A stretch of 33,610 nucleotides of DNA, from the IMG/VR virus record IMGVR_UViG_3300032240_001203, positions 1 to 33,610 of that record; one strand, 5' to 3'. Positions 4,261 to 33,610 of the stretch are shown in pieces. A program made the translations under genes and the position numbers. The notes beneath the pieces are model-generated. The model made no database searches. It was given only the letters and a program-made list of their open reading frames with translations, and was not told the origin of the DNA. Every line of letters starts with the position of its first letter. The first letter of the stretch is position 1. Origin of the DNA: a virus.

Positions 4261-4950
4261 ATGCAGCGTGGAACAGTTCTAAAAGGTGCTCTCGCTAGAA
4301 TGCCACAAAACTCACCTCGTCCTGCAATGGATGATGGGCGAATATATGCTGGTGGCAATCCCAACTTCAATGAACAGACTGGTAGGTATAACGCTCCTCA
4401 GCAACCAGTTGCGGCGCATTATACAAGTCAGGTTGGTCAGCCGCCTATGCAGCAATCAAATGTAGGGCAATATGTAAACCCTGCTGGTCAGCCTTCAACT
4501 CAAGGCATGGCACCTATGCGACCACACTACATGGAGCAAATTGGACAAGCGCCAATGCAGCCTATGCCGCAACAAGTTAATGGTATGGCACCTGCTGGGC
4601 ACATGCGAGATCCTCGGTTAAATGTTTTTTCCCCTGAGCATCAACAGCCAATGAATCCAGGCAATCCAAGTAATCCTGGGATGGCTATGCCAGCTGGAAT
4701 GCCAACTCAATCAAATTGGAACCCAAATCTGAACGTGTTTTTCCATCAGCCACAAGGAATGGCTCAAAACAATATGCAGCCGATTCCTAAAGCTCCTGGA
4801 TTTGGAATGCAGCCGATTCCTAAAACTCCTGGATTTGGATGGGCAGGAATGGACCCAAGGAGACCTGGAGTATCTTTGCCTGATTATATGAATACTGTTC
4901 AGAATGCGGTACCAGCTAGTCAGCCTCGACCATTCTTTTTTAACCGATAA
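4261..4950 (+). CDS. Pro/Gln/Met/Asn-rich low-complexity protein, 229 aa
   Basis: ORF in the operon; composition read from the translation; contains a 2 x 33-bp tandem repeat. Confidence 0.65.
   Translation: MQRGTVLKGALARMPQNSPRPAMDDGRIYAGGNPNFNEQTGRYNAPQQPVAAHYTSQVGQPPMQQSNVGQYVNPAGQPSTQGMAPMRPHYMEQIGQAPMQPMPQQVNGMAPAGHMRDPRLNVFSPEHQQPMNPGNPSNPGMAMPAGMPTQSNWNPNLNVFFHQPQGMAQNNMQPIPKAPGFGMQPIPKTPGFGWAGMDPRRPGVSLPDYMNTVQNAVPASQPRPFFFNR
4774..4839 (+). repeat. Tandem 2 x 33-bp in-frame repeat (MQPIPKAPGFG / MQPIPKTPGFG)
   Basis: atgcagccgattcctaaaGctcctggatttgga at 4774-4806 is repeated at 4807-4839 with one substitution. Confidence 0.95.
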
Positions 4951-14992: not shown

Positions 14993-15196
14993 ATGGAAGA
15001 CAACCAGAAACAACCAGAACCATACGTTAATATGCACCGGCTAATGGATCACTTTAAGGTTTCACGTCCAAAGGTGGAGGCTATGATTCACGAGGGATTG
15101 CCAATGTTGAGGCTAGGGAGAAGTCGTCGTTTTAAGATTACGGAAGTAGAAGAGTGGCTAAAAGCAAAACAGGAAGATCAGCATGAACGAGCATAA
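14993..15196 (+). CDS. Xis/AlpA/MerR-like helix-turn-helix DNA-binding protein, 67 aa
   Basis: FKVSRPKVEAMIHEGLPMLRLGRSRRFKITEVEEWL fits the excisionase-type HTH pattern. Confidence 0.55.
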   Translation: MEDNQKQPEPYVNMHRLMDHFKVSRPKVEAMIHEGLPMLRLGRSRRFKITEVEEWLKAKQEDQHERA

Positions 15197-15800
15197 TCCA
15201 TGGAAAATAAGCCTTTTAATGGATGATGAAATAATCACAAGCAAAGACCTAACTTGGACTGAGCGAATCGTTTATTCGTACATTCAAGGATTTGTTAGAA
15301 ACAACAAGATCTGTTGGGCTACCAGTAAGACAATAGCAGAACGCTTTCACTTTAATGAGAGTCATGTTCGGGCGGCGAGGTCTCGACTGGTTAAACGAGG
15401 GATGCTTGAAAAGTTTGAGCACAAAGGAAGGTACTATTTTACGACCGCCAAGTCCCCGAGCGGCATCCTTGAGCGGAATGACATCCCAGAAAAAAGTGAA
15501 CAAAATCAAGCGCACGAAATTCCAACACTGTTGGCTACCGCCAACGTTGGAAATTCCAACACTGTTGGTCAGCGCCAACACCCCCTGTTGGCTGGCACCA
15601 ACACCGACCGTTGGCTACCGCCAACACCCCTGTTGGCTAGCGCCAACACATATAATAAAGATAATATAGATCTTAATAGTAAATCTAATATCTCTATGAC
15701 TGAGAAGATGAAATTGGAAGCTGAAGAGGAGTTTGTTTCTAAAAATATCGATGCTCTCAACAAAGCCGCTGAACGATTGGGATTGAATAAAAGGTTCTAA
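15183..15800 (+). CDS. Replication-initiator-like protein, 205 aa (N-terminal winged helix; iterons within its own coding sequence)
   Basis: The N-terminus (ERIVYSYIQGF...SKTIAERFHFNESHVRAARSRLVKRGMLEK) is wHTH-like. The central linker is encoded by the repeat array at 15522-15650, as in lambda O. Confidence 0.5.
   Translation: MNEHNPWKISLLMDDEIITSKDLTWTERIVYSYIQGFVRNNKICWATSKTIAERFHFNESHVRAARSRLVKRGMLEKFEHKGRYYFTTAKSPSGILERNDIPEKSEQNQAHEIPTLLATANVGNSNTVGQRQHPLLAGTNTDRWLPPTPLLASANTYNKDNIDLNSKSNISMTEKMKLEAEEEFVSKNIDALNKAAERLGLNKRF
15522..15700. promoter_or_regulatory. Putative replication origin: seven CCAAC(N0-7)GTTGG-type sites followed by a 50-bp AT-rich tract
   Basis: Sites at 15522-34, 15541-50, 15556-68, 15575-91, 15598-614 and 15621-36, plus a half-site at 15643-50. 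The 6-nt spacers recur (ctaccg x2, ctagcg, tcagcg, ctggca). AT-rich tract at 15651-15700. Confidence 0.6.
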
Positions 15801-15842
15801 TCAATTTTAAGATGTGTTAGGTTTCTCAAAACCCACAAGTTT

Positions 15843-15883
15843 CCCCGCCTAGTGTGATTACCCTCCGCTAGACGGGGTTTTTT
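15843..15883 (+). terminator. Rho-independent terminator (CCCCGCCTAG ... CTAGACGGGG then TTTTTT)
   Basis: 10-bp stem with one mismatch, 15843-52 / 15868-77; T6 at 15878-83; lies between convergent genes. Confidence 0.7.
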
Positions 15884-15887
15884 CTTT

Positions 15888-16151
15888 CTACCTCTCAAAG
15901 CCCAATTCTAATTCGCTTGCATCCCTCAGCCAGAGTATCCCGTCCATCTGCCCTTTCTCGAACTCAGACCTTACTCCTCGCTCGATTGCGTCAGTTAGCC
16001 GTTCAGCTTCAGCATCCAGTACCTCTTTAAAAGCCCGTAAACCGTCCAGGAACGCTTTTTCAGCTATCATCCTATCTCTGATATGGGTCAGCCTCTTAAA
16101 GTGCGTCTGAGAGTATTCTGAGGCTTTAGCCCTTAGTGTCGTTTTGCTCAT
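15888..16151 (-). CDS. Hypothetical helical protein, 87 aa
   Basis: ORF at the end of the leftward operon; overlaps the upstream ORF by 26 nt. Confidence 0.55.
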   Translation of the reverse strand: MSKTTLRAKASEYSQTHFKRLTHIRDRMIAEKAFLDGLRAFKEVLDAEAERLTDAIERGVRSEFEKGQMDGILWLRDASELELGFER

Positions 16152-16323
16152 AGTATGTCCAATTTTCTAATGCTTGTTTTACGCCTTCAGTGATGGTGAC
16201 TTCTTCCTGCTCACAAACGCCCTTAAAGTCGTCCCATAGTTTTTCTAGAACGTAGGTGCAGACTTTTTTATGACCAAGAGTAGGTTTAGACCAAAAAGGA
16301 TTCTTTTTTCGTTTTGTCGCCAT
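16126..16323 (-). CDS. Small protein, 65 aa, possibly ribbon-helix-helix
   Basis: Basic N-terminus, then a strand-helix-helix-like pattern KKVCTYVLEKLWDDFKGVCEQEEVTITEGVKQALENW; weak call. Confidence 0.45.
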   Translation of the reverse strand: MATKRKKNPFWSKPTLGHKKVCTYVLEKLWDDFKGVCEQEEVTITEGVKQALENWTYYEQNDTKG

Positions 16324-16325
16324 GC

Positions 16326-17117
16326 TTACCCCTCAACAATACAAGATTGTAACCGATCAAGGCGTATAGGAGCGGTCCAGATACCGGTCTCCTCGTCGTA
16401 GGTAGCCATGCGCTCCCTTAGGTAGTCACTTGCCTTATCTTGCTGTTCTTGGCTTAGGTTGCGAATGTCATAACGAGTCTTAACCGCCTTATTGGCTTTA
16501 AGCGTACCTGACTCATCCTGTGATACAGGTTGAAACTGTAAGCCTATCACTCGCCCGTTCTTGGTCACTATTTCAGCGTCATCAGTAGCTTCTAGCTTTT
16601 GATTAACTTTCTCCTGATAACTCTGAGAGTAGGTGTCGGGCATCTCCTCTTGAGTGTATAAACCACCCAATTCGTTGATAAAAGCTTCACGAATTGCCAA
16701 GCTCTTAGCACACTTGGATAGCATGATGCTCGGCATCTGTTTCCAGATAGGGGATTGTTTCCCATACTCTGCAAGGTAGGCAATCGCCACCGAGGGAAAC
16801 CGTCGATCCTTTCGGTAAACCTTCGCCGTGGAACTGATGAGCGTCTTTCCATCCTCGGACCACTCGAAAGTTACTTCCATGCCATCGAAGTGTGGGTGTG
16901 AGTTGGCTATCTTTAGGAAGCCGTTGATCCCTGTCATGATCTGGAGTCTGCCACCCGCCTTGATCGCCCATATCTCTTTAGTGATCGGGTTTAAACCAGT
17001 GCTTTTGACCATCTCAGTAAACAGTAAAAATTCACTATCCGTGAGTCCTGGTGCTACCGTATGGCGCAAGGTATTGATCATATCGATGTGGTTAGTTGTG
17101 GTTAGTTCTTTACTCAT
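16326..17117 (-). CDS. bet: Lambda Bet-family single-strand annealing protein, 263 aa
   Basis: GLNPITKEIWA, GINGF, FDGMEV, VYRKDRRFP, W(K)QMPSIMLSKCAKSLAIREAF line up with lambda Bet (GLNPWTKEIYA, GVDGW, FDGMDF, IYRKDRNHP, PKRMLRHKAMIQCARLAF). Confidence 0.85.
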   Translation of the reverse strand: MSKELTTTNHIDMINTLRHTVAPGLTDSEFLLFTEMVKSTGLNPITKEIWAIKAGGRLQIMTGINGFLKIANSHPHFDGMEVTFEWSEDGKTLISSTAKVYRKDRRFPSVAIAYLAEYGKQSPIWKQMPSIMLSKCAKSLAIREAFINELGGLYTQEEMPDTYSQSYQEKVNQKLEATDDAEIVTKNGRVIGLQFQPVSQDESGTLKANKAVKTRYDIRNLSQEQQDKASDYLRERMATYDEETGIWTAPIRLDRLQSCIVEG

Positions 17118-17299
17118 ATTCCCTCTAATTTATTAAGCATTTTGTTTAATTGGTCATGTTGGGCTTGCGTTAGCCGGGGCGGGTATTGACAAACAAATAG
17201 GGGCATCTTGTCCCCTGCCTCGTTTAATCCTAGCGCCACCGCATAGCTAAACCCGTTTACTGTTAGCGTGTAGCCGTCAATGGTTTCCTCAAGCGTCAT
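17114..17299 (-). CDS. Hypothetical protein, 61 aa
   Basis: ATGA coupling to bet; ORF in the operon. Confidence 0.5.
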   Translation of the reverse strand: MTLEETIDGYTLTVNGFSYAVALGLNEAGDKMPLFVCQYPPRLTQAQHDQLNKMLNKLEGI

Positions 17300-17558
17300 G
17301 ATCGTTACCTACCCTTGGTTGACCCTCTGCTATCTGTACCTCGTACCAGAATACGGCTTGGTCGATTAGGTCTAGTAAGCTCTCGGGGTGCGTGTTCGTG
17401 TTGGCGGCTAGTTCACTCCATGCCCTAACCGAATCATCGCCGAATAACTCCCAACGGAGCCAGGGGCGAGTTTCATCGTGGCAAGCAGTGTCGACTACGA
17501 TATTAATCCCTTGGTGTTCCAGCACTAGCAACGTGCCGATCTCTTCTATGACATTCAT
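17289..17558 (-). CDS. Hypothetical acidic protein, 89 aa
   Basis: GAGGGTAATATT-ATG ribosome-binding context shared with neighbouring genes. Confidence 0.6.
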   Translation of the reverse strand: MNVIEEIGTLLVLEHQGINIVVDTACHDETRPWLRWELFGDDSVRAWSELAANTNTHPESLLDLIDQAVFWYEVQIAEGQPRVGNDHDA

Positions 17559-17630
17559 AATATTACCCTCGTAAATTGAGCCTGAATTGACTCACCCCGC
17601 CGTCTAACGTGAGGCGGTAGGGAAAGCCTA

Positions 17631-17738
17631 CTACAAGGCGAAGAATAGAATGGCTAGTGGATAGGCTAGAATGGCGAGCCCGATAAAGGACACGATCTCT
17701 AGCCAGAGGGGATCTGAGTGAACAATTTTGCTACGCAT
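17631..17738 (-). CDS. 35-aa hydrophobic micro-ORF (single predicted TM helix); below the ORF-track cutoff
   Basis: TAGGAGATATT-ATG, with the SD overlapping the upstream stop. Translation: MRSKIVHSDPLWLEIVSFIGLAILAYPLAILFFAL. It fills an otherwise unexplained 188-nt gap. Confidence 0.5.
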   Translation of the reverse strand: MRSKIVHSDPLWLEIVSFIGLAILAYPLAILFFAL

Positions 17739-17746
17739 AATATCTC

Positions 17747-18169
17747 CTAGTTGGTCCTGTAAACAAAGTATTGACCGCACTCGAATTCCTTACCATCGTA
17801 GGAGCTTATAAAGTGACCTCTACCATCGCTTGACATAGCGTCCCGCGCAAAGTGATCAAGGTCTTCGATCAATGCCTCGATGATAGGTAAGGCCGATTCG
17901 CACAACTCGCCTTGCATTTTTTCCAGCGCCTTAATGCACTCGGTGGAAAGCCCATTGCGGGTATGTGAGGCGATAAACGACGCGCTAAAAGCCCATAGGG
18001 TATCCTTGATATGCTCAACGCATCGTTCGTGTGCTTCCTCATCGGTCAAGACAAGGTATTCACGTGCGCCATGGAAAAACTCATTATTTGAGTACTTGCA
18101 AGGATTAATTTCGTCAGCGTCACAAGCAAGGTGTGCGGCTAATGCTTCGATTTTTGTTTGTGTTGTCAT
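17747..18169 (-). CDS. Hypothetical early protein, 140 aa
   Basis: AGAGGGTAT-ATG context; acidic, Cys-containing; no family that I can name with confidence. Confidence 0.65.
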   Translation of the reverse strand: MTTQTKIEALAAHLACDADEINPCKYSNNEFFHGAREYLVLTDEEAHERCVEHIKDTLWAFSASFIASHTRNGLSTECIKALEKMQGELCESALPIIEALIEDLDHFARDAMSSDGRGHFISSYDGKEFECGQYFVYRTN

Positions 18170-18220
18170 ATACCCTCTGTTGTTGGCTTAATTGCCTAGA
18201 CTTATATTCTCACACACACG

Positions 18221-18478
18221 CTAGCATGTCAAGTGGTTGATCACAGCATCGGGGTGAGCCGTTGCCATTCTTGCGATGGTCTCAGTGAGCGCCTTACTGT
18301 TGGCGGTGATTGCCTTGGGGAACGTGTAGCGGTCTAGGATGGCGTCTATGCCGTAGTCCATGACGTAGGCTACACCGTTCACCTCACGCTCCTGGAAACG
18401 CACTAGGACACACTGAACGCCTGCGATCTTGCGGCTACCCATGATTCGAATCGCTTCGATCTGTTTTCTTGTTTGCAT
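18221..18478 (-). CDS. Hypothetical early protein, 85 aa
   Basis: Preceded by repeat-element copy 1 and AGAGGGTAAT-ATG. Confidence 0.65.
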   Translation of the reverse strand: MQTRKQIEAIRIMGSRKIAGVQCVLVRFQEREVNGVAYVMDYGIDAILDRYTFPKAITANSKALTETIARMATAHPDAVINHLTC

Positions 18479-18480
18479 AT

Positions 18481-18549
18481 TACCCTCTTAATCATCGGCA
18501 CTATTACCGATTGATAGAACACCCTCGCAAGGGTGCTCCGGCAATCGTT
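18481..18549 (-). repeat. Intercistronic structured element, copy 1 (69 nt)
   Basis: 40 nt identical to 18834-18873, then a hairpin that co-varies with copy 2, then the shared gctccggcaatcgtt. Confidence 0.85.
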
Positions 18550-18582
18550 TCAATCGGGTACCCCGTGGGATACCCTGTAGGA

Positions 18583-18828
18583 TCAACCAACGATGTGAAA
18601 CTTTGATCGACCGATTCGAGCAATCTGGTTGATCTCGCTAGTGTCTAACTCACCGTTGAATTTAAATGCTTGCCACCGTATCAAGTCGGCGATATCTGCT
18701 AGAGTACAGTGTAAAGGTTCAAAGGCTTGTAACCCGTAGCCGTTGAACAAGTGTAAGTTCGTCTCGCTGAATGGTATATGCCGGACGTGCGCTAGTTCTA
18801 TCGCTTGTTTTAATTGTTGTTTGTCCAT
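18583..18828 (-). CDS. Hypothetical early protein, 81 aa
   Basis: Preceded by repeat-element copy 2 and AGAGGGTACAGAT-ATG. Confidence 0.65.
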   Translation of the reverse strand: MDKQQLKQAIELAHVRHIPFSETNLHLFNGYGLQAFEPLHCTLADIADLIRWQAFKFNGELDTSEINQIARIGRSKFHIVG

Positions 18829-18833
18829 ATCTG

Positions 18834-18900
18834 TACCCTCTTAATCATCGGCACTATTACCGATTGATAGAACGCCCCGTAGGGCGCTCCGGCAATCGTT
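18834..18900 (-). repeat. Intercistronic structured element, copy 2 (67 nt)
   Basis: See copy 1. It fills the whole gap between genes 18901-19152 and 18583-18828. Confidence 0.85.
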
Positions 18901-19152
18901 CTAGCGTGAAGCTACTGCCCACAAATCACCATCCTGCTCAAGGTTGTAACAAGTGCTACCCACCGTGACTGTGACATCTCGCAAGATTGCATCCCAAACT
19001 TCCCAGTAAAGCTCGTGCTCCGGACCGGCTATGAGCGCAGCCATATCCTCATCGTTGTGAACATGGTCGGGGTATCGCTTGGCAAAAATCTGAGGGATGT
19101 AAACCCCGTTGCACTCGTCGATTAGTAAAACTCTGTCTGCGTTGTTGAACAT
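18901..19152 (-). CDS. Hypothetical early protein, 83 aa (first gene of the leftward operon)
   Basis: AGAGGGTACAAC-ATG; acidic small protein. Confidence 0.65.
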   Translation of the reverse strand: MFNNADRVLLIDECNGVYIPQIFAKRYPDHVHNDEDMAALIAGPEHELYWEVWDAILRDVTVTVGSTCYNLEQDGDLWAVASR

Positions 19153-19197
19153 GTTGTACCCTCTTAAATCGGTGAGTCACTCTCACTCAATGATTAG

Positions 19198-19226
19198 AGT
19201 ATGACACGCTAGTGTGTATAGTGCAA
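19198..19226 (-). promoter_or_regulatory. Leftward early promoter candidate (TTGCAC-17 nt-CATACT) with a 14-bp near-palindrome in the spacer
   Basis: Minus-strand -35 at 19226-19221 and -10 at 19203-19198; ACACGCTAGTGTGT at 19204-19217. Confidence 0.3.
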
Positions 19227-19437
19227 CAGAAAAGCACAAACTATTTTCAATCGTAACTACCTAATAACATTAAGCGACGCAAAAAAAGTGAAGAAAAGTG
19301 CAAAAACAATTGAATAAAAACGAGTCTCAGATCGTCCGTTCGGAACTCAGAACGTGAGGCATCGCCGAACTCAACCTGAGCGATCAGCGAAGTATAAACA
19401 GATACAATCTGATACAACGATCATGTATGCTTAAAGG

Positions 19438-19722
19438 GTGAACAACTTAATAATAACACACAACATGATTCAGAAGCCCCTTACAGCCACTAGGATTCGC
19501 AGAGAACGGCGTACAGTAGGCGTGCTATACAGACTACTGAGGTCTAGGCTAGGCGTAACACAGACCGTTATGGGGGCTTTATTGGGCGTATCAAAAGACA
19601 CGATAGTGCAGAGGGAGCGCAACAAACGAGTCTATACCCTCGATGAACTATGCGAGCTGCAGAACGTAAGCGGTATGGGGGATGCAGAATGGTGGGCACT
19701 CATCAAAGAGGTAGCTAAGTAG
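19438..19722 (+). CDS. Cro/CI-type (XRE family) HTH regulator, 85-94 aa (start is GTG 19438 or ATG 19465)
   Basis: LRSRLGVTQTVMGALLGVSKDTIVQRERNKRVYTLDEL fits the XRE HTH pattern; divergent from the leftward early operon. Confidence 0.6.
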   Translation: MNNLIITHNMIQKPLTATRIRRERRTVGVLYRLLRSRLGVTQTVMGALLGVSKDTIVQRERNKRVYTLDELCELQNVSGMGDAEWWALIKEVAK

Positions 19723-19996
19723 TTGGTGCTAGGTAAGATCGTGGAGGGGGGTAGTGTACCCATCACACGATGATCATACGTAACATATTAATATCATTGG
19801 GCATACCTACCTAACGAGAACCAGAAAACTAATAAACTAACTTGGCAAAACGTAATCTTATCCATAACTTAGGCGCCAATTTCCCAGCTAGGCTCTCCTT
19901 TTTCGATCTCAATTTAAAACTGACGTCAATTGTCCACACCCCTACACCCCATCTCCCACATAAAAATCCTGATTTATCTATTCAAACATTGTTTCT

Positions 19997-20596
19997 ATGA
20001 GTCGAGAATTAACTGACAGAATCATGGCTGCGATTGATGCTGTAGCTGATAGAGTTGATTTTGGGACTGGTTTAAACGGAGGGTTACGTATGGGCGACGA
20101 TGAAAAATTTAAAAATCCTGAAGTTTTGAATGGGGATGTTTTGGTGGATTCAAACCTTCAAGCGGCGGAAACTGCTGTAGAGCCTGTGATTGTTAAGCAA
20201 CCGCCTAGGCGTAAGGATTACTCTAACCAGCGGTATGAAAAGGATGGTGAGACGAGTGCGATGGTTACTCGGCTAGCGAGGCTTGGGTTGAGCAAGACTG
20301 CGGTAGCTATAGCGGCTAGGCTTAGTCCCAATGAGCTAACAAAATGGTATGGCGAGGAGTATGCTGCTGGTCAGGCTGGTATGCAGGAGGTAGTTGCTAG
20401 GGGGTTGATGGAGCAGGCTATGGCTGGCAACCCTCAGGTGCTTATGTATTTGGGTAAGTCTAAGTTGGGATGGACTGAGGCGAATGTGGTTGAGCATGTT
20501 GGGACGGTAAACGCTGTTGTGAGTGCTAAGCCGTTGAGCCGTGAAGAGTTTGAGGCGAAATATCTGAATAACGATACGGATTCTGATGAGGAATGA
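19997..20596 (+). CDS. terS: Terminase small subunit, 199 aa
   Basis: HTH-like LARLGLSKTAVAIAARLSPNEL, followed by the AGNPQVLMYLGKSKLGWTE motif typical of small terminases; positioned upstream of terL. Confidence 0.6.
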   Translation: MSRELTDRIMAAIDAVADRVDFGTGLNGGLRMGDDEKFKNPEVLNGDVLVDSNLQAAETAVEPVIVKQPPRRKDYSNQRYEKDGETSAMVTRLARLGLSKTAVAIAARLSPNELTKWYGEEYAAGQAGMQEVVARGLMEQAMAGNPQVLMYLGKSKLGWTEANVVEHVGTVNAVVSAKPLSREEFEAKYLNNDTDSDEE

Positions 20597-20628
20597 TATA
20601 AGGCGTAGTGCCTAGAGGGTATGAGGGT

Positions 20629-20793
20629 ATGAAGGACAGATTAGTCTATTTTCGTTGTCCCAAGTGTAAGGATTTGGGGGTTCAAGTTACAAGCAATAAG
20701 TTTGTTGAGTGTGCCAAGCGTTGGTGTGGCTATAGGTTTTGCTATATCCGGCATCAGGTAAAGAAGGAGTATTACGACCGTGTTTGGGGATAA
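20629..20793 (+). CDS. Zinc-ribbon small protein, 54 aa
   Basis: The ATG at 20629 follows GAGGGT. CPKC ... C....C pattern. The track start at 20608 is GTG. Confidence 0.55.
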   Translation: MKDRLVYFRCPKCKDLGVQVTSNKFVECAKRWCGYRFCYIRHQVKKEYYDRVWG

Positions 20794-20795
20794 GT

Positions 20796-21224
20796 ATGAG
20801 CAAAACACCTGAAGAGTTGGCAGAGGAGTATATGGATCAAGATAAAATAGCTTGTGCCGCTATTAACCACGATGCTGAAGATCTTGTTGAAGCAGCCTTT
20901 CTCGCTGGCTACAAGGCGGCCCAAGCTGAGATTGAAGCGTACAAAGATGGCGCAAAAGATGTAGTAAAAAAGTTTAAGGAGTTGATAGCGGCAAAGGATC
21001 AGGTTGCTGACACCAGCAAGGTGATGCCTCAATGGATTAGCGTAAAGGATAGGCTGCCAAAGGCGGACGACTTCTGTTTGGTAAATACAGAATTTGATTG
21101 CATTAGAATTGCTCAATATGGATGGGAGTCATGGCGATTTAATGACGCTTACAGCAGCAGCGAACATCCAAAAAGCTATGTAACCCACTGGATGCCGCTA
21201 CCTAAGCCACCGGAGAGTAAATGA
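20796..21224 (+). CDS. DUF551-domain protein, 142 aa
   Basis: The C-terminus (WISVKDRLPK...VTHWMPLPKPPE) is the DUF551 signature. The ATG at 20796 lies 2 nt after the upstream TAA. Confidence 0.65.
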   Translation: MSKTPEELAEEYMDQDKIACAAINHDAEDLVEAAFLAGYKAAQAEIEAYKDGAKDVVKKFKELIAAKDQVADTSKVMPQWISVKDRLPKADDFCLVNTEFDCIRIAQYGWESWRFNDAYSSSEHPKSYVTHWMPLPKPPESK

Positions 21225-29919: not shown

Positions 29920-29976
29920 ATGCTTTTATTTTTTAAGTTGCTGCAAAGCTACTTGCAGGTGCAACTGCGGAGATAG
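29920..29976 (+). pseudogene. 18-codon remnant duplicating the 5' end of gene 30499-30996 (MLLFFKLLQSYLQVQLRR*)
   Basis: 39/48 nt identical to 30499-30546 by hand alignment. Five of the nine differences are synonymous. It ends in a TAG 4 nt before the nuclease ATG. Confidence 0.6.
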
Positions 29977-29979
29977 TAG

Positions 29980-30495
29980 ATGGGTCAGTTTAATCAGCCA
30001 CGAGCACGATTACCCACTTTATCTGACCGTCCCATTACATTCGCCAGCTATGCGGAGTATGCGGCGGGAATGTTGCTAGAGCGTTACATTGGCGATTATG
30101 AATTGAAAATGGGACACACGTTTCAAGTTCCAATAGGTTACAATAAACAATGCGACTTTTTAATTAATGGCGTTTTTGTGGAGTTTCATCCCACTAACCT
30201 AAAGCACGAGTTTTCGGACCGACAAGCGGCCAGGCAATTTGGCGAAGCATTGCGGCACGTCGCTAATCCGTTTCGAGAACGAATAGTAAATGCTGTTAAG
30301 AATGAGCTTGCGGAAAAATACTATGAACGACGTAAGTTTTTAGTGTCGATGCATGCAGGCAAAGATTCAGAATTAATCGTTTGTAAGAATCATATCGATC
30401 TATACCAATCAGTTATTAAACGGTTTGGGGTTGGATATCCAAAGCAAGCAAATTTTATAAATGAGTTTGATGCGCTAGCTCGGCAAAGGTTTTAA
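29980..30495 (+). CDS. Restriction-endonuclease-fold (Vsr/DUF559-like) nuclease candidate, 171 aa; possible free-standing homing endonuclease
   Basis: SYAEYAAGMLLE ... Q.PIGYNKQCDFLINGVFVEFHP matches the S..E ... Q...DF...(h)E.(h)H layout of Vsr-like/PD-(D/E)xK nucleases. Preceded by the 5'-end duplicate at 29920-29967. Confidence 0.45.
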   Translation: MGQFNQPRARLPTLSDRPITFASYAEYAAGMLLERYIGDYELKMGHTFQVPIGYNKQCDFLINGVFVEFHPTNLKHEFSDRQAARQFGEALRHVANPFRERIVNAVKNELAEKYYERRKFLVSMHAGKDSELIVCKNHIDLYQSVIKRFGVGYPKQANFINEFDALARQRF

Positions 30496-30498
30496 GAT

Positions 30499-30996
30499 AT
30501 GTTTTTATTTTTTAAGCCGCCGCAAAGCTATTTGCAAGTTCAGTTGCTTGATCCCGACGGTCCGGCAAAACGTAAAGCCATTGATCTTGAAGAAGCCTAT
30601 GCGATTAAGATTCTTCAGGAGCGGCAAGCTAAGCAAAAGGCTAAGCGCAAAGAAGCTAGCTTTAAGGCGAAGATTAAGAAGCAGCTGGAAGAGGGCAAGA
30701 CCGCCGTTGAAGTAGCCGCTGAGCTTACTCAAGAAATAATAGCTGAGGAGCCAAAGTTTGAGTTTACCGAAGAAATGCGAGCCGATGTTGCTCGTATTAT
30801 GGCAGAATATGAGCGCCAGGTAAGACTTGAAACTCAGGCAATGGTAATTGAGTTCGCTAATCAGCTTGCTCAAACAACGGCATTACTAGAGGCAGAACTT
30901 CAAAGACGAATAGAAGAAAAGCGACGGCGTAGGATTAAGCGCAATCGTATTAAAGCACTGATTCTGTTTGCTTCAATGGATGATAACGATGAGTAA
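30499..30996 (+). CDS. Charged coiled-coil protein, 165 aa
   Basis: ORF in the operon; Lys/Glu/Arg-rich helical sequence; its 5' end is duplicated at 29920. Confidence 0.6.
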   Translation: MFLFFKPPQSYLQVQLLDPDGPAKRKAIDLEEAYAIKILQERQAKQKAKRKEASFKAKIKKQLEEGKTAVEVAAELTQEIIAEEPKFEFTEEMRADVARIMAEYERQVRLETQAMVIEFANQLAQTTALLEAELQRRIEEKRRRRIKRNRIKALILFASMDDNDE

Positions 30997-33390: not shown

Positions 33391-33610
33391 ATGTCACGTT
33401 CTGGATCATTTGGCGTAAATTACAAGAAAACCTACGGAACTGCTCCGTCGATCAATGAGGCTGTACTCGGCGATCTTGGATCAAATCCTGAAGGTGAGTA
33501 CGTATATGTTCAGGCTGCTTCGTCAGTCGCTCAATACGATGCTGTAGCCATCTCCCGTACTTACACAGTAGCGTCTCTGACGACTACGACTGCTGGTAGC
33601 AATACTTTGC
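33391..33610 (+). CDS. 5' part of a 161-aa Ala/Gly/Thr/Ser-rich virion protein (possible capsid decoration/cement protein); continues at window position 124 after the overlap
   Basis: ATG at 33391 lies 7 nt after AAGGAGG. The frame is continuous with the 120-389 track ORF once 33488-33610 is superimposed on 1-123. Sits directly downstream of the major capsid gene. Confidence 0.6.
   Translation, partial: MSRSGSFGVNYKKTYGTAPSINEAVLGDLGSNPEGEYVYVQAASSVAQYDAVAISRTYTVASLTTTTAGSNTL
33488..33610. repeat. Second copy of the 123-bp terminal overlap
   Basis: Identical to 1-123. Confidence 0.95.

Follow-up and report, generated by a model that had tools for sequence, protein, structure and literature searches.

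The window, as we call the whole stretch of 33,610 nucleotides that was analysed, corresponds to an entire phage genome (about 33.5 kb), with bases 1-123 repeated at 33488-33610. Searches for near and for distant nucleotide relatives among GenBank phages found none, and the large terminase encoded in the window shows no more than 42% identity to its counterpart in any cultured phage. The element described here lies in a leftward early operon of small genes that leads to RecT, and no Pfam or PHROG function was found for the small operon genes that neighbour it. The genes of the locus are the following:

19438-19722: Xre-type HTH gene, divergent from the leftward operon
18901-19152: 83-aa gene, first gene transcribed in the leftward operon
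18583-18828: 81-aa gene, second in transcription order
18221-18478: 85-aa gene, third in transcription order
after the 85-aa gene: genes of 140, 89 and 61 aa, in that order
16326-17117: RecT, last listed gene of the leftward operon

Two intercistronic gaps of this operon, one on either side of the 81-aa gene, hold copies of an element of about 70 nt on the minus strand (18476-18552 and 18826-18903), which have an exact 40-mer and an exact 15-mer in common. Each copy can be read as a long two-part helix (hairpin I, made of an outer stem and an inner hairpin), a second hairpin (hairpin II) and a Shine-Dalgarno (SD) sequence, and parts of this arrangement recur elsewhere in the operon:

18826..18903, minus strand: copy 2, complete cassette, bounded by the 83-aa gene's stop codon (18901-18903) and the 81-aa gene's ATG (18826-18828)
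18893..18898, minus strand: copy 2, 5' arm of the outer stem, CGAUUG, which pairs with 18861-18866 in the MFE structure
18869..18890, minus strand: copy 2, inner hairpin GGAGCGCCC-UACG-GGGCGUUCU, with a UNCG-type loop closed by C-G
18861..18866, minus strand: copy 2, 3' arm of the outer stem, CAAUCG, common to the 5' arm of hairpin II
18847..18864, minus strand: copy 2, hairpin II, AUCGGUA-AUAG-UGCCGAU, which forms without the 5' arm of the outer stem
18836..18842, minus strand: copy 2, Shine-Dalgarno AAGAGGG of the 81-aa gene
18476..18552, minus strand: copy 1, complete cassette, ending at the ATG of the 85-aa gene (18476-18478)
18542-18547 with 18508-18513, minus strand: copy 1, outer stem
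18516-18539, minus strand: copy 1, inner hairpin
18494-18511, minus strand: copy 1, hairpin II
18483-18489, minus strand: copy 1, SD
18550..18575, minus strand: extra hairpin upstream of copy 1, GGGUAUCC-CACG-GGGUACCC, then GAUUGA
19159..19189, minus strand: 5' UTR of the first operon gene, with hairpin UGAGU-GAGAGUG-ACUCA (19173-19189), then CCGAUUUAAGAGGGUA
18171..18196, minus strand: junction before the 140-aa gene, with hairpin GGC-AAUUAA-GCC (18185-18196) and SD CAGAGGGUA

Covariance-model scores are 83.6 bits (R1) and 73.5 bits (R2) for copy 2, and 72.0 bits (R1) and 57.2 bits (R2) for copy 1.

An earlier note on this DNA had described the two copies as nearly identical repeats that differ only in a central hairpin. 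The 40 nt that it called identical, TACCCTCTTAATCATCGGCACTATTACCGATTGATAGAAC, occur exactly twice (18481-18520 and 18834-18873; 0 occurrences expected by chance), the 15-nt 3' flank, GCTCCGGCAATCGTT, is the same in both copies, and the difference is indeed confined to the apical hairpin, the rest of the two copies being identical. On the minus strand the central hairpin reads GAGCACCC-UUGCGA-GGGUGUUC in copy 1 and GAGCGCCC-UACG-GGGCGUUC in copy 2, with the one double change from A-U to G-C and the G·U third pair that the note had pointed out; the inner hairpin of copy 2 contains two G·U pairs, which are A/C mismatches on the opposite strand. The claim that the fold works only in the direction of transcription was borne out against shuffled controls: the minus-strand RNAs fold far better than these (minimum free energies of -43.4 kcal/mol for the gap with copy 1 and -32.0 kcal/mol for that with copy 2; z = -4.6, -5.4; equalled by 0 of 200 shuffles), whereas the plus strand is indistinguishable from them (z = -1.3, -1.5). 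The outer stem CGAUUG/CAAUCG is present as described, but the 3x3 internal loop placed above it is not, RNAfold adding a G·U pair to the inner stem to give a 2x2 loop, CC/AU. The alternative hairpin AUCGG..CCGAU exists and reaches 7 bp around an AUAG loop; in copy 2 an automatic count gives the shared arm an overlap of 3 nt, and on direct reading the 7-bp hairpin shares AUCG. The supposed third, partial copy at 19157-19190 consists only of the downstream half of the element, a small hairpin with the same ribosome-binding region, and not of the whole cassette.

Missing from the earlier note were an extra hairpin upstream of copy 1 (18556-18575), the spread of the family across a clade of phages, its position at mosaic joints and the occurrence of its downstream initiation module on its own. 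The stem of the extra hairpin is identical to that of the L061/L160 element and nearly so to those of the L047 elements, and its region gives a partial R2 match (18553-18577, 25.7 bits); it looks like what is left of another element, of class-2 type, that was joined to copy 1. The genes flanking the two copies are unrelated to each other, and gene duplication as the origin of the repeat is ruled out by the flanking proteins being non-paralogues.

Searches of IMG/VR anchored on the terminase and on RecT gave, from about 550 relatives (413 large-terminase and 140 RecT matches), 160 loci of the same clade, in which the synteny of RecT, the small genes, the HTH gene, a 199-aa gene and the terminase is kept. 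Folding of the intercistronic gaps in the early operons of these relatives revealed the same architecture, built from other stem sequences, in several of them. A covariance model made from 7 seeds and applied with a cut-off of E<1e-3 retrieved 43 instances, 41 of them distinct, and second-round models added a few more, for a family total of about 50 instances in about 30 related IMG/VR contigs. The matches all lie in gaps of the leftward early operon, in its sense orientation and within the stretch bounded by the HTH gene and RecT; each matching contig has 1-4 copies, and 25 of the 80 RecT-anchored loci have at least one. Look-alike elements in L017, L025 and other loci are too diverged for the covariance models. 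The variant found in the window had no match in IMG/VR, either to its 27-mer or to a gapped structural pattern. A metagenome scan with the hairpin II 18-mer was discarded, its 45 loci being chance matches, none of them the element. Rfam 15 gave no match at E<=1 for positions 15000-21000 of the window and none at E<=0.1 for four multi-copy relatives, and no description of the element was found in the literature searched.

Comparison of these instances shows that the element is a member of a conserved structured-RNA family in an uncultured phage clade and that it acts in cis, as a structured part of the polycistronic mRNA transcribed early from the leftward operon. Covariation is seen in 41-45 homologues, and the compensated stem and alternative second hairpin first noticed in the window hold family-wide. 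Hairpin I consists of an outer stem of 6-8 bp, a 2x2 or 3x3 internal loop, an inner stem of 8-11 bp and a YNMG/UNCG tetraloop. It is paired in 91.8% of alignment cells against 32-44% in slid controls, on an alignment that is fitted to the model and so favours pairing, a bias that the slid controls carry as well; by helix, 95.4% of cells are paired in the outer stem and 89.3% in the inner. Both-sided changes affect 14 of 15 pairs, in 96 cells, and 6 of 6 pairs in the outer helix; no shuffle out of 500 reaches any of these measures. The stems of the 41 instances hold 64 G·U against 2 A·C, which places the fold on the transcribed-sense strand only. The apical loops, which the earlier note had assigned to the UNCG class, are YNMG/UNCG in 27 of 41 instances (UACG 7, CACG 7, UCCG 5, CAAG 4, UAAG 2, UUCG 2) and are typically closed by C-G, an RNA-specific signature. 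Sequence as well as pairing is kept at the internal loop, where 5' (A)C-A faces 3' G-A(U), and 38 of 41 instances carry an A•G mismatch at the inner stem's base; in the window variant, with its CC/AU loop, G·U takes the place of A•G. The inner stem, by comparison, is free in sequence while its pairing is kept. Hairpin stability ranges from -20 to -34 kcal/mol. In almost every instance 0-10 nt separate the helix from the stop codon of the preceding gene, and this codon usually abuts the outer stem; at copy 1 it is some 30 nt more distant, on the far side of another hairpin.

Hairpin II takes its 5' arm from the nucleotides that form the 3' arm of the outer stem: of 38 instances, 31 share at least 2 nt and 20 share 5 nt. 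When the 5' arm of the outer stem is left out, hairpin II forms in 40 of 41 tails and the SD stays open. On an alignment that was not fitted to it, hairpin II is 83% paired against about 35% when slid, one of its pairs being C-G in 21 instances and G-C in 12; on a fitted alignment the figures are 87.8% against 14-44%, and 5 of 5 pairs have changed on both sides. In L024, an unrelated stem, GGCUCA/UGAGUC, surrounds the same AUAG loop. The outer-stem state is more stable by about 4.3 kcal/mol on average (-25.2 against -20.8), so that hairpin II needs the 5' arm to be cut off or covered; its conservation, in spite of its losing the competition in the intact RNA, means that it must be of importance when that arm is cut or covered. 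After hairpin II come about 10-20 nt of open RNA, followed by the SD and the start codon. This downstream half serves as a common module for translation initiation, which also stands alone at other genes: the small hairpin and the same ribosome-binding region are found without hairpin I at the first operon gene and at some other junctions, among them the one before the 140-aa gene, which has a hairpin-II-like module and the ribosome-binding region only. In the window, the motif RGAGGGUA precedes five consecutive operon genes, at two of which it belongs to the full hairpin cassette and at the others is accompanied by a small hairpin only.

At the DNA level, the element marks points of gene swapping among these phages, a pattern that emerges when the 700 nt on either side of every instance are compared between contigs:

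Pairs sharing the element only: 145 (+30 near contig ends)
Pairs sharing the element and the upstream gene: 14 (+3)
Pairs sharing the element and the downstream gene: 4
Pairs sharing the element and both flanks: 1

Altogether 25 upstream and 35 downstream protein families are joined by the element, with flanking ORFs of 40-170 aa, and the 34 resolved junctions represent different gene-family combinations in 34 of 34 cases. About 10 class-1 copies start with TAGCCTAGTGTGA, which supplies stop codons in all three frames, different upstream ORFs using different ones. RecT is encoded by all these phages, including the genome studied here, in which the 81-aa gene is flanked by 40-nt perfect direct repeats; copy 1, with its class-2-type remnant, looks like the scar of a recombination between element types. 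From the pattern of shared and unshared flanks we infer that the cassette acts as a homology patch of 40-70 nt for the exchange of small early genes between phages.

Several known systems resemble the element in part. The early RNase III signals of phage T7 (R0.3, R0.5, R1, R1.1 and R1.3) are likewise related copies in the intercistronic gaps of one early operon, and likewise have upper and lower helices split by an internal loop, which in T7 confines cleavage to one strand, so that a 3' hairpin remains to protect the RNA upstream (PMC1540722). The element has no sequence homology to these signals, its helix is shorter (mode 18 bp-equivalents), its symmetric internal loop is small and contains an A•G mismatch, and cleavage here is only predicted. 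Its 3' arm doubles as the 5' arm of a second hairpin just before the SD; we know of no T7 RNase III site with such a dual-use arm.

The PeSLs of T4-type phages are cassettes defined by a strong sigma70-like promoter and a terminator, clustered among small ORFans, repeated within each genome and situated at the boundaries of insertions, deletions and replacements, and serve there as homology linkers (Arbiol et al. 2010, PMC2839356; PMC4122927). The element is like them in spanning the interval from stop codon to ATG, in carrying an SD at its 3' end, in its ORFan flanks and in its position at indel or replacement boundaries. It has a stable stem-loop, but none of the 41 instances has a U-tract, taken as 5 or more U within the 8 nt that follow either stem, inner or outer. 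A sigma70-like promoter is lacking too, the best score over the 41 instances being 7.27 of 12 against 7.62 in shuffles, with no promoter-like site at the window copies. In contrast to PeSLs, the element is post-transcriptional, lies inside one operon and shows covariation of the RNA type.

The layout of the operon further recalls the SAS of Cluster K mycobacteriophages, which the sections of Pope et al. (2011, PMC3203893) drawn on here present as a conserved, asymmetric motif, always in one orientation, that overlaps the ribosome-binding site of non-structural genes. According to the same sections, its 13-bp consensus, GGGATAGGAGCCC, lies 3-8 bp upstream of start codons, an imperfect inverted repeat (ESAS), variable in its spacer, lies directly upstream at about half of the SAS sites, both accompany genes belonging to various families, and a role in translation is suggested for them (PMC3203893). 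RGAGGGUA at five genes with the full hairpin cassette at two is a comparable arrangement without homology, a search with GGGATAGGAGCCC having given 0 matches with up to 2 mismatches allowed. Sequence, host and phage group are all different, and the structure of the element is shown by covariation and includes an alternative-pairing arm and tetraloops, whereas SAS and ESAS are presented as consensus sequences, those sections mentioning no covariation analysis (PMC3203893). With neither the promoter of the PeSLs nor the consensus of SAS, the element is a member of neither group. Intercistronic C(UUCG)G hairpins of T4, reportedly extra-stable and capped by C-G-closed UNCG tetraloops, are said to have been described by Tuerk and colleagues in 1988; those hairpins are simple and isolated, whereas here the hairpin is set within an outer stem and an internal loop and is accompanied by a second hairpin.

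Two further comparisons were considered and set aside. The conserved outer stem, the variable centre and the cassettes of same-orientation ORFs had prompted the idea of an integron attC-like site; no integrase turned up in the proteins that were scanned, and the element's loops are tetraloops of the RNA type. The antitermination sites lambda nut and HK022 put occur as one promoter-proximal site per operon, and the presence of several copies between cistrons argues against a site of this kind. For the mechanism, the RNase III sites of the T7 early operon fit best among known systems; the element appears to work like these T7 signals at the RNA level and like the PeSL linkers at the DNA level.

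The cassette probably punctuates and stabilises the long early mRNA. The earlier note had suggested, as candidate functions, an RNase III/E processing site, an mRNA stabiliser or a place where a phage regulator binds. As to how, we tentatively favour a T7-like processing and stability site of the RNase III type, which would assign hairpin I to the 3' end of the upstream message and hairpin II, as a cap, to the 5' end of the downstream one. A host endonuclease specific for double strands (RNase III type) would cut at the internal loop or at the top of the outer stem; hairpin I would stay with the upstream cistron as a 3' cap against exonucleases; and hairpin II, now at the 5' end of the downstream fragment and just ahead of the SD, would shield the downstream cistron and keep its ribosome-binding site open. 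RNase III needs at least 11 bp from tetraloop to cut and leaves 2-nt 3' overhangs, internal loops limit it to one strand, which leaves a protective 3' hairpin, and its full contacts need about 22 bp (PMC1540722). The helix of the element comprises 8-11 bp, 2 mismatches and up to 8 bp (total mode 18, range 12-21 bp-equivalents), with the internal loop 9-11 positions from the tetraloop, a geometry that would fit a site of the RNase III type. Hairpin II begins at nt 14-15 past the apical loop in 28 of 38 instances, in agreement with a cut that lies at least 11 bp from the tetraloop and has a 2-nt 3' overhang; given this spacing, a canonical cut would keep hairpin I on the upstream piece and free a downstream one whose 5' end is that of hairpin II or adjoins it, some 10-20 nt ahead of the SD. 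The corresponding distance is 16 in the variants with a long inner stem, so that a ruler based on the loop is not strict, and the proximal- and distal-box rules of RNase III are, to our knowledge, defined for the E. coli enzyme only. The small hairpins that occur without hairpin I at other genes fit a 5'-proximal hairpin that every cistron wants. Further observations go against the processing model: the helix, with its mode of 18, is above the 11-bp minimum but below the approximately 22 bp of full contact; the occurrence of hairpin II without hairpin I elsewhere may point to a translational role rather than to protection of 5' ends; with a stop codon that usually abuts the outer stem, ribosomes would often melt the proposed substrate; and the variant in the window could be compared with no other genome.

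A broader proposal, to which we give a fairly low probability, is that the element is a portable gene joint working at two levels, which would end the upstream reading frame, be cut by a host RNase and refold its arm as a 5' cap, and which would also be the preferred RecT crossover point for ORFan swaps.

The proximity of the stop codon to the helix in nearly all instances, the covariation of two mutually exclusive helices, the independence of hairpin II and the ribosome-binding region at genes without hairpin I and the conservation of RGAGGGUA ahead of five consecutive operon genes could all be accommodated by a joint linked to translation, an explanation that we consider rather unlikely. On this account a terminating ribosome would melt the outer stem, hairpin II would form and compact the spacer, and the nearby SD would be presented for re-initiation or efficient fresh initiation, while hairpin I would mainly insulate the ribosome-binding site from the upstream coding sequence. 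However, masking the 5' arm leaves the predicted accessibility of the SD the same (0.68 against 0.66 over the 41 instances), which argues against a classical SD-sequestration switch, whether ermC-like or of the translational coupling type, across the family; the more distant stop codon of copy 1, screened by another hairpin, also fits poorly. We know of no coupling mechanism that requires a 20-nt GC-rich tetraloop hairpin, which counts against this explanation too. A few copies seemed to pair the 3' arm of hairpin II with the SD, which is not a property of the family.

It is unlikely that the element is simply a passive decay barrier or insulator, comparable to REP elements or to the T4 C(UUCG)G hairpins, in which hairpin I would block 3'-to-5' exonucleases and set the stability of operon segments with no endonucleolytic cut. 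Such a barrier would leave the conserved A•G internal loop, the conserved outer stem and the covariation of the out-competed hairpin II unexplained, even though very stable hairpins with C-G-closed YNMG/UNCG loops in intercistronic positions, free in inner-stem sequence as long as pairing is maintained, are what it would call for.

Conservation of the internal loop beyond pairing, retention of the AUAG loop of hairpin II over unrelated stems (as in L024) and the suitability of several identical copies per operon for co-regulation would be in keeping with a binding site for a phage or host protein, such as a translational repressor or an antiterminator, that recognizes the internal loop, the loop of hairpin II or both and co-regulates early genes. 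We regard this as improbable: no candidate RNA-binding protein was found within the operon, where the neighbouring genes lack Pfam or PHROG functions, the loops of hairpin II differ within one genome (CUAA and AUUA in L047), and the two pairings that the shared arm has to satisfy can on their own account for slow sequence change.

A purely DNA-level role, as a recombination linker or a single-stranded-DNA hairpin used in RecT-dependent exchange with no RNA function, is highly improbable. The mosaic-joint pattern, the presence of RecT in all these phages, the fusion of two element types in copy 1 and the three-frame stops at the start of about 10 class-1 copies would suit it, but a hairpin is superfluous for a homology patch; the compensatory changes, the 64:2 ratio of G·U to A·C and the RNA-specific tetraloops point to selection on the transcript, and the constant register that the element keeps with stop codon, SD and ATG is characteristic of an mRNA. 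Finally, although a GC-rich hairpin between genes with an alternative pairing recalls attenuators, very little credence can be given to intrinsic termination or attenuation with outer stem and hairpin II as a terminator/antiterminator pair, since no U-run follows either hairpin of the window, in line with the earlier note, U-tracts are lacking in all 41 instances, a terminator scan returned nothing at the window copies and up to four copies upstream of the conserved RecT would silence the operon.

To return to the processing and stability site that we tentatively favour, the novelty of the element lies in features that occur together in an uncultured clade: a two-state helix that covaries and shares an arm, an internal loop with a conserved A•G, a module for ribosome binding and a systematic position at the boundaries of ORFan cassettes. 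With about 50 instances, strong covariation and no match in Rfam, it adds a well-supported structured-RNA family from the 'dark matter' of phages, and it joins two themes that are usually separate, the punctuation and stabilisation of early polycistronic mRNA and the shuffling of small accessory genes. The dual-use arm makes a concrete prediction, namely a cut followed by refolding to a 5' hairpin. If the proposed role is true, the cassette would be a compact natural part with which to insulate and stabilise cistrons in synthetic operons; and if the element is in addition a gene joint at both the RNA and the DNA level, it would be a post-transcriptional counterpart of PeSLs or integron cassettes in an abundant uncultured clade of phages.

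In the leftward operon, the minus-strand early genes in which small ORFs are followed by RecT, five genes in a row have the same ribosome-binding motif, RGAGGGUA, ahead of them:

17564-17572, minus strand, RGAGGGUA site
18171-18179, minus strand, RGAGGGUA site
18481-18489, minus strand, RGAGGGUA site
18834-18842, minus strand, RGAGGGUA site
19157-19165, minus strand, RGAGGGUA site

Genome-wide, with at most one mismatch allowed, the motif has 14 matches against 6.7 expected. RGAGGGUA is a start-associated sequence specific to the leftward operon, resembling the SAS of Cluster K mycobacteriophages, which overlap the ribosome-binding site before ATG starts. In the same region, the 188-nt gap ahead of the 89-aa gene holds a mini-ORF followed by two hairpins:

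17631-17738, minus strand, 35-aa hydrophobic mini-ORF, MRSKIVHSDPLWLEIVSFIGLAILAYPLAILFFAL

Similar small peptides, ending ..LAYP.AI.LFAL, are encoded in the equivalent gaps of the related loci L076, L074/L075 and L072; the mini-ORF probably encodes a small, conserved membrane peptide, one too short to pass ordinary ORF length cut-offs.

The window is a complete genome, and the exact 123-nt repeat at its ends (1-123 = 33488-33610) is either an overlap from assembly of a circular molecule or a pair of direct terminal repeats. Further repeats lie within or beside genes:

4774-4839, tandem duplication of 33 nt (11 codons), 97% identical and in perfect register, inside ORF 4261-4950
15516-15650, four to five iteron-like direct repeats, inside ORF 15183-15800
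29920-29968 and 30499-30547, 49-nt direct repeat, 82% identical

The iteron-like array comprises GAAATTCCAACACTGTTGGCTACCGCCAAC and 22-23-nt subrepeats CCCCTGTTGGCTRGCRCCAACAC, and the ORF that contains it matches replication-initiator (O-like/DnaD-like) PHROGs; the array is probably the replication origin, embedded in its own initiator gene, a layout like that of lambda. The 49-nt copies, each sitting shortly ahead of one of the adjacent late-region genes 29980-30495 and 30499-30996 or at its beginning, suggest that the two genes are paralogues or have an upstream signal in common. Comparison of related loci L002-L045 with L046-L081 indicates that the match to the same 604-aa terminase query spans about 2270 nt in one set and about 1400 nt (best segment) in the other, which hints that some members of the clade have a terminase gene that is split or carries an insertion (intein, intron or homing endonuclease).

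About ten class-1 elements, intercistronic cassettes of hairpin I, hairpin II and a Shine-Dalgarno sequence in related phages, open with TAGCCTAGTGTGA (or TAGCTTAGTGTGA), which puts a stop codon in each of the three frames:

L083, 2868-3588, class-1 elements with three-frame stops
L141, 39-1397, the same
L084, 1253-1326, the same
L018, 2870-2938, the same
L027, 724-797, the same
others

Different stops within this opening are used by different upstream ORFs, and the elements would thus end any incoming ORF, whatever its frame.
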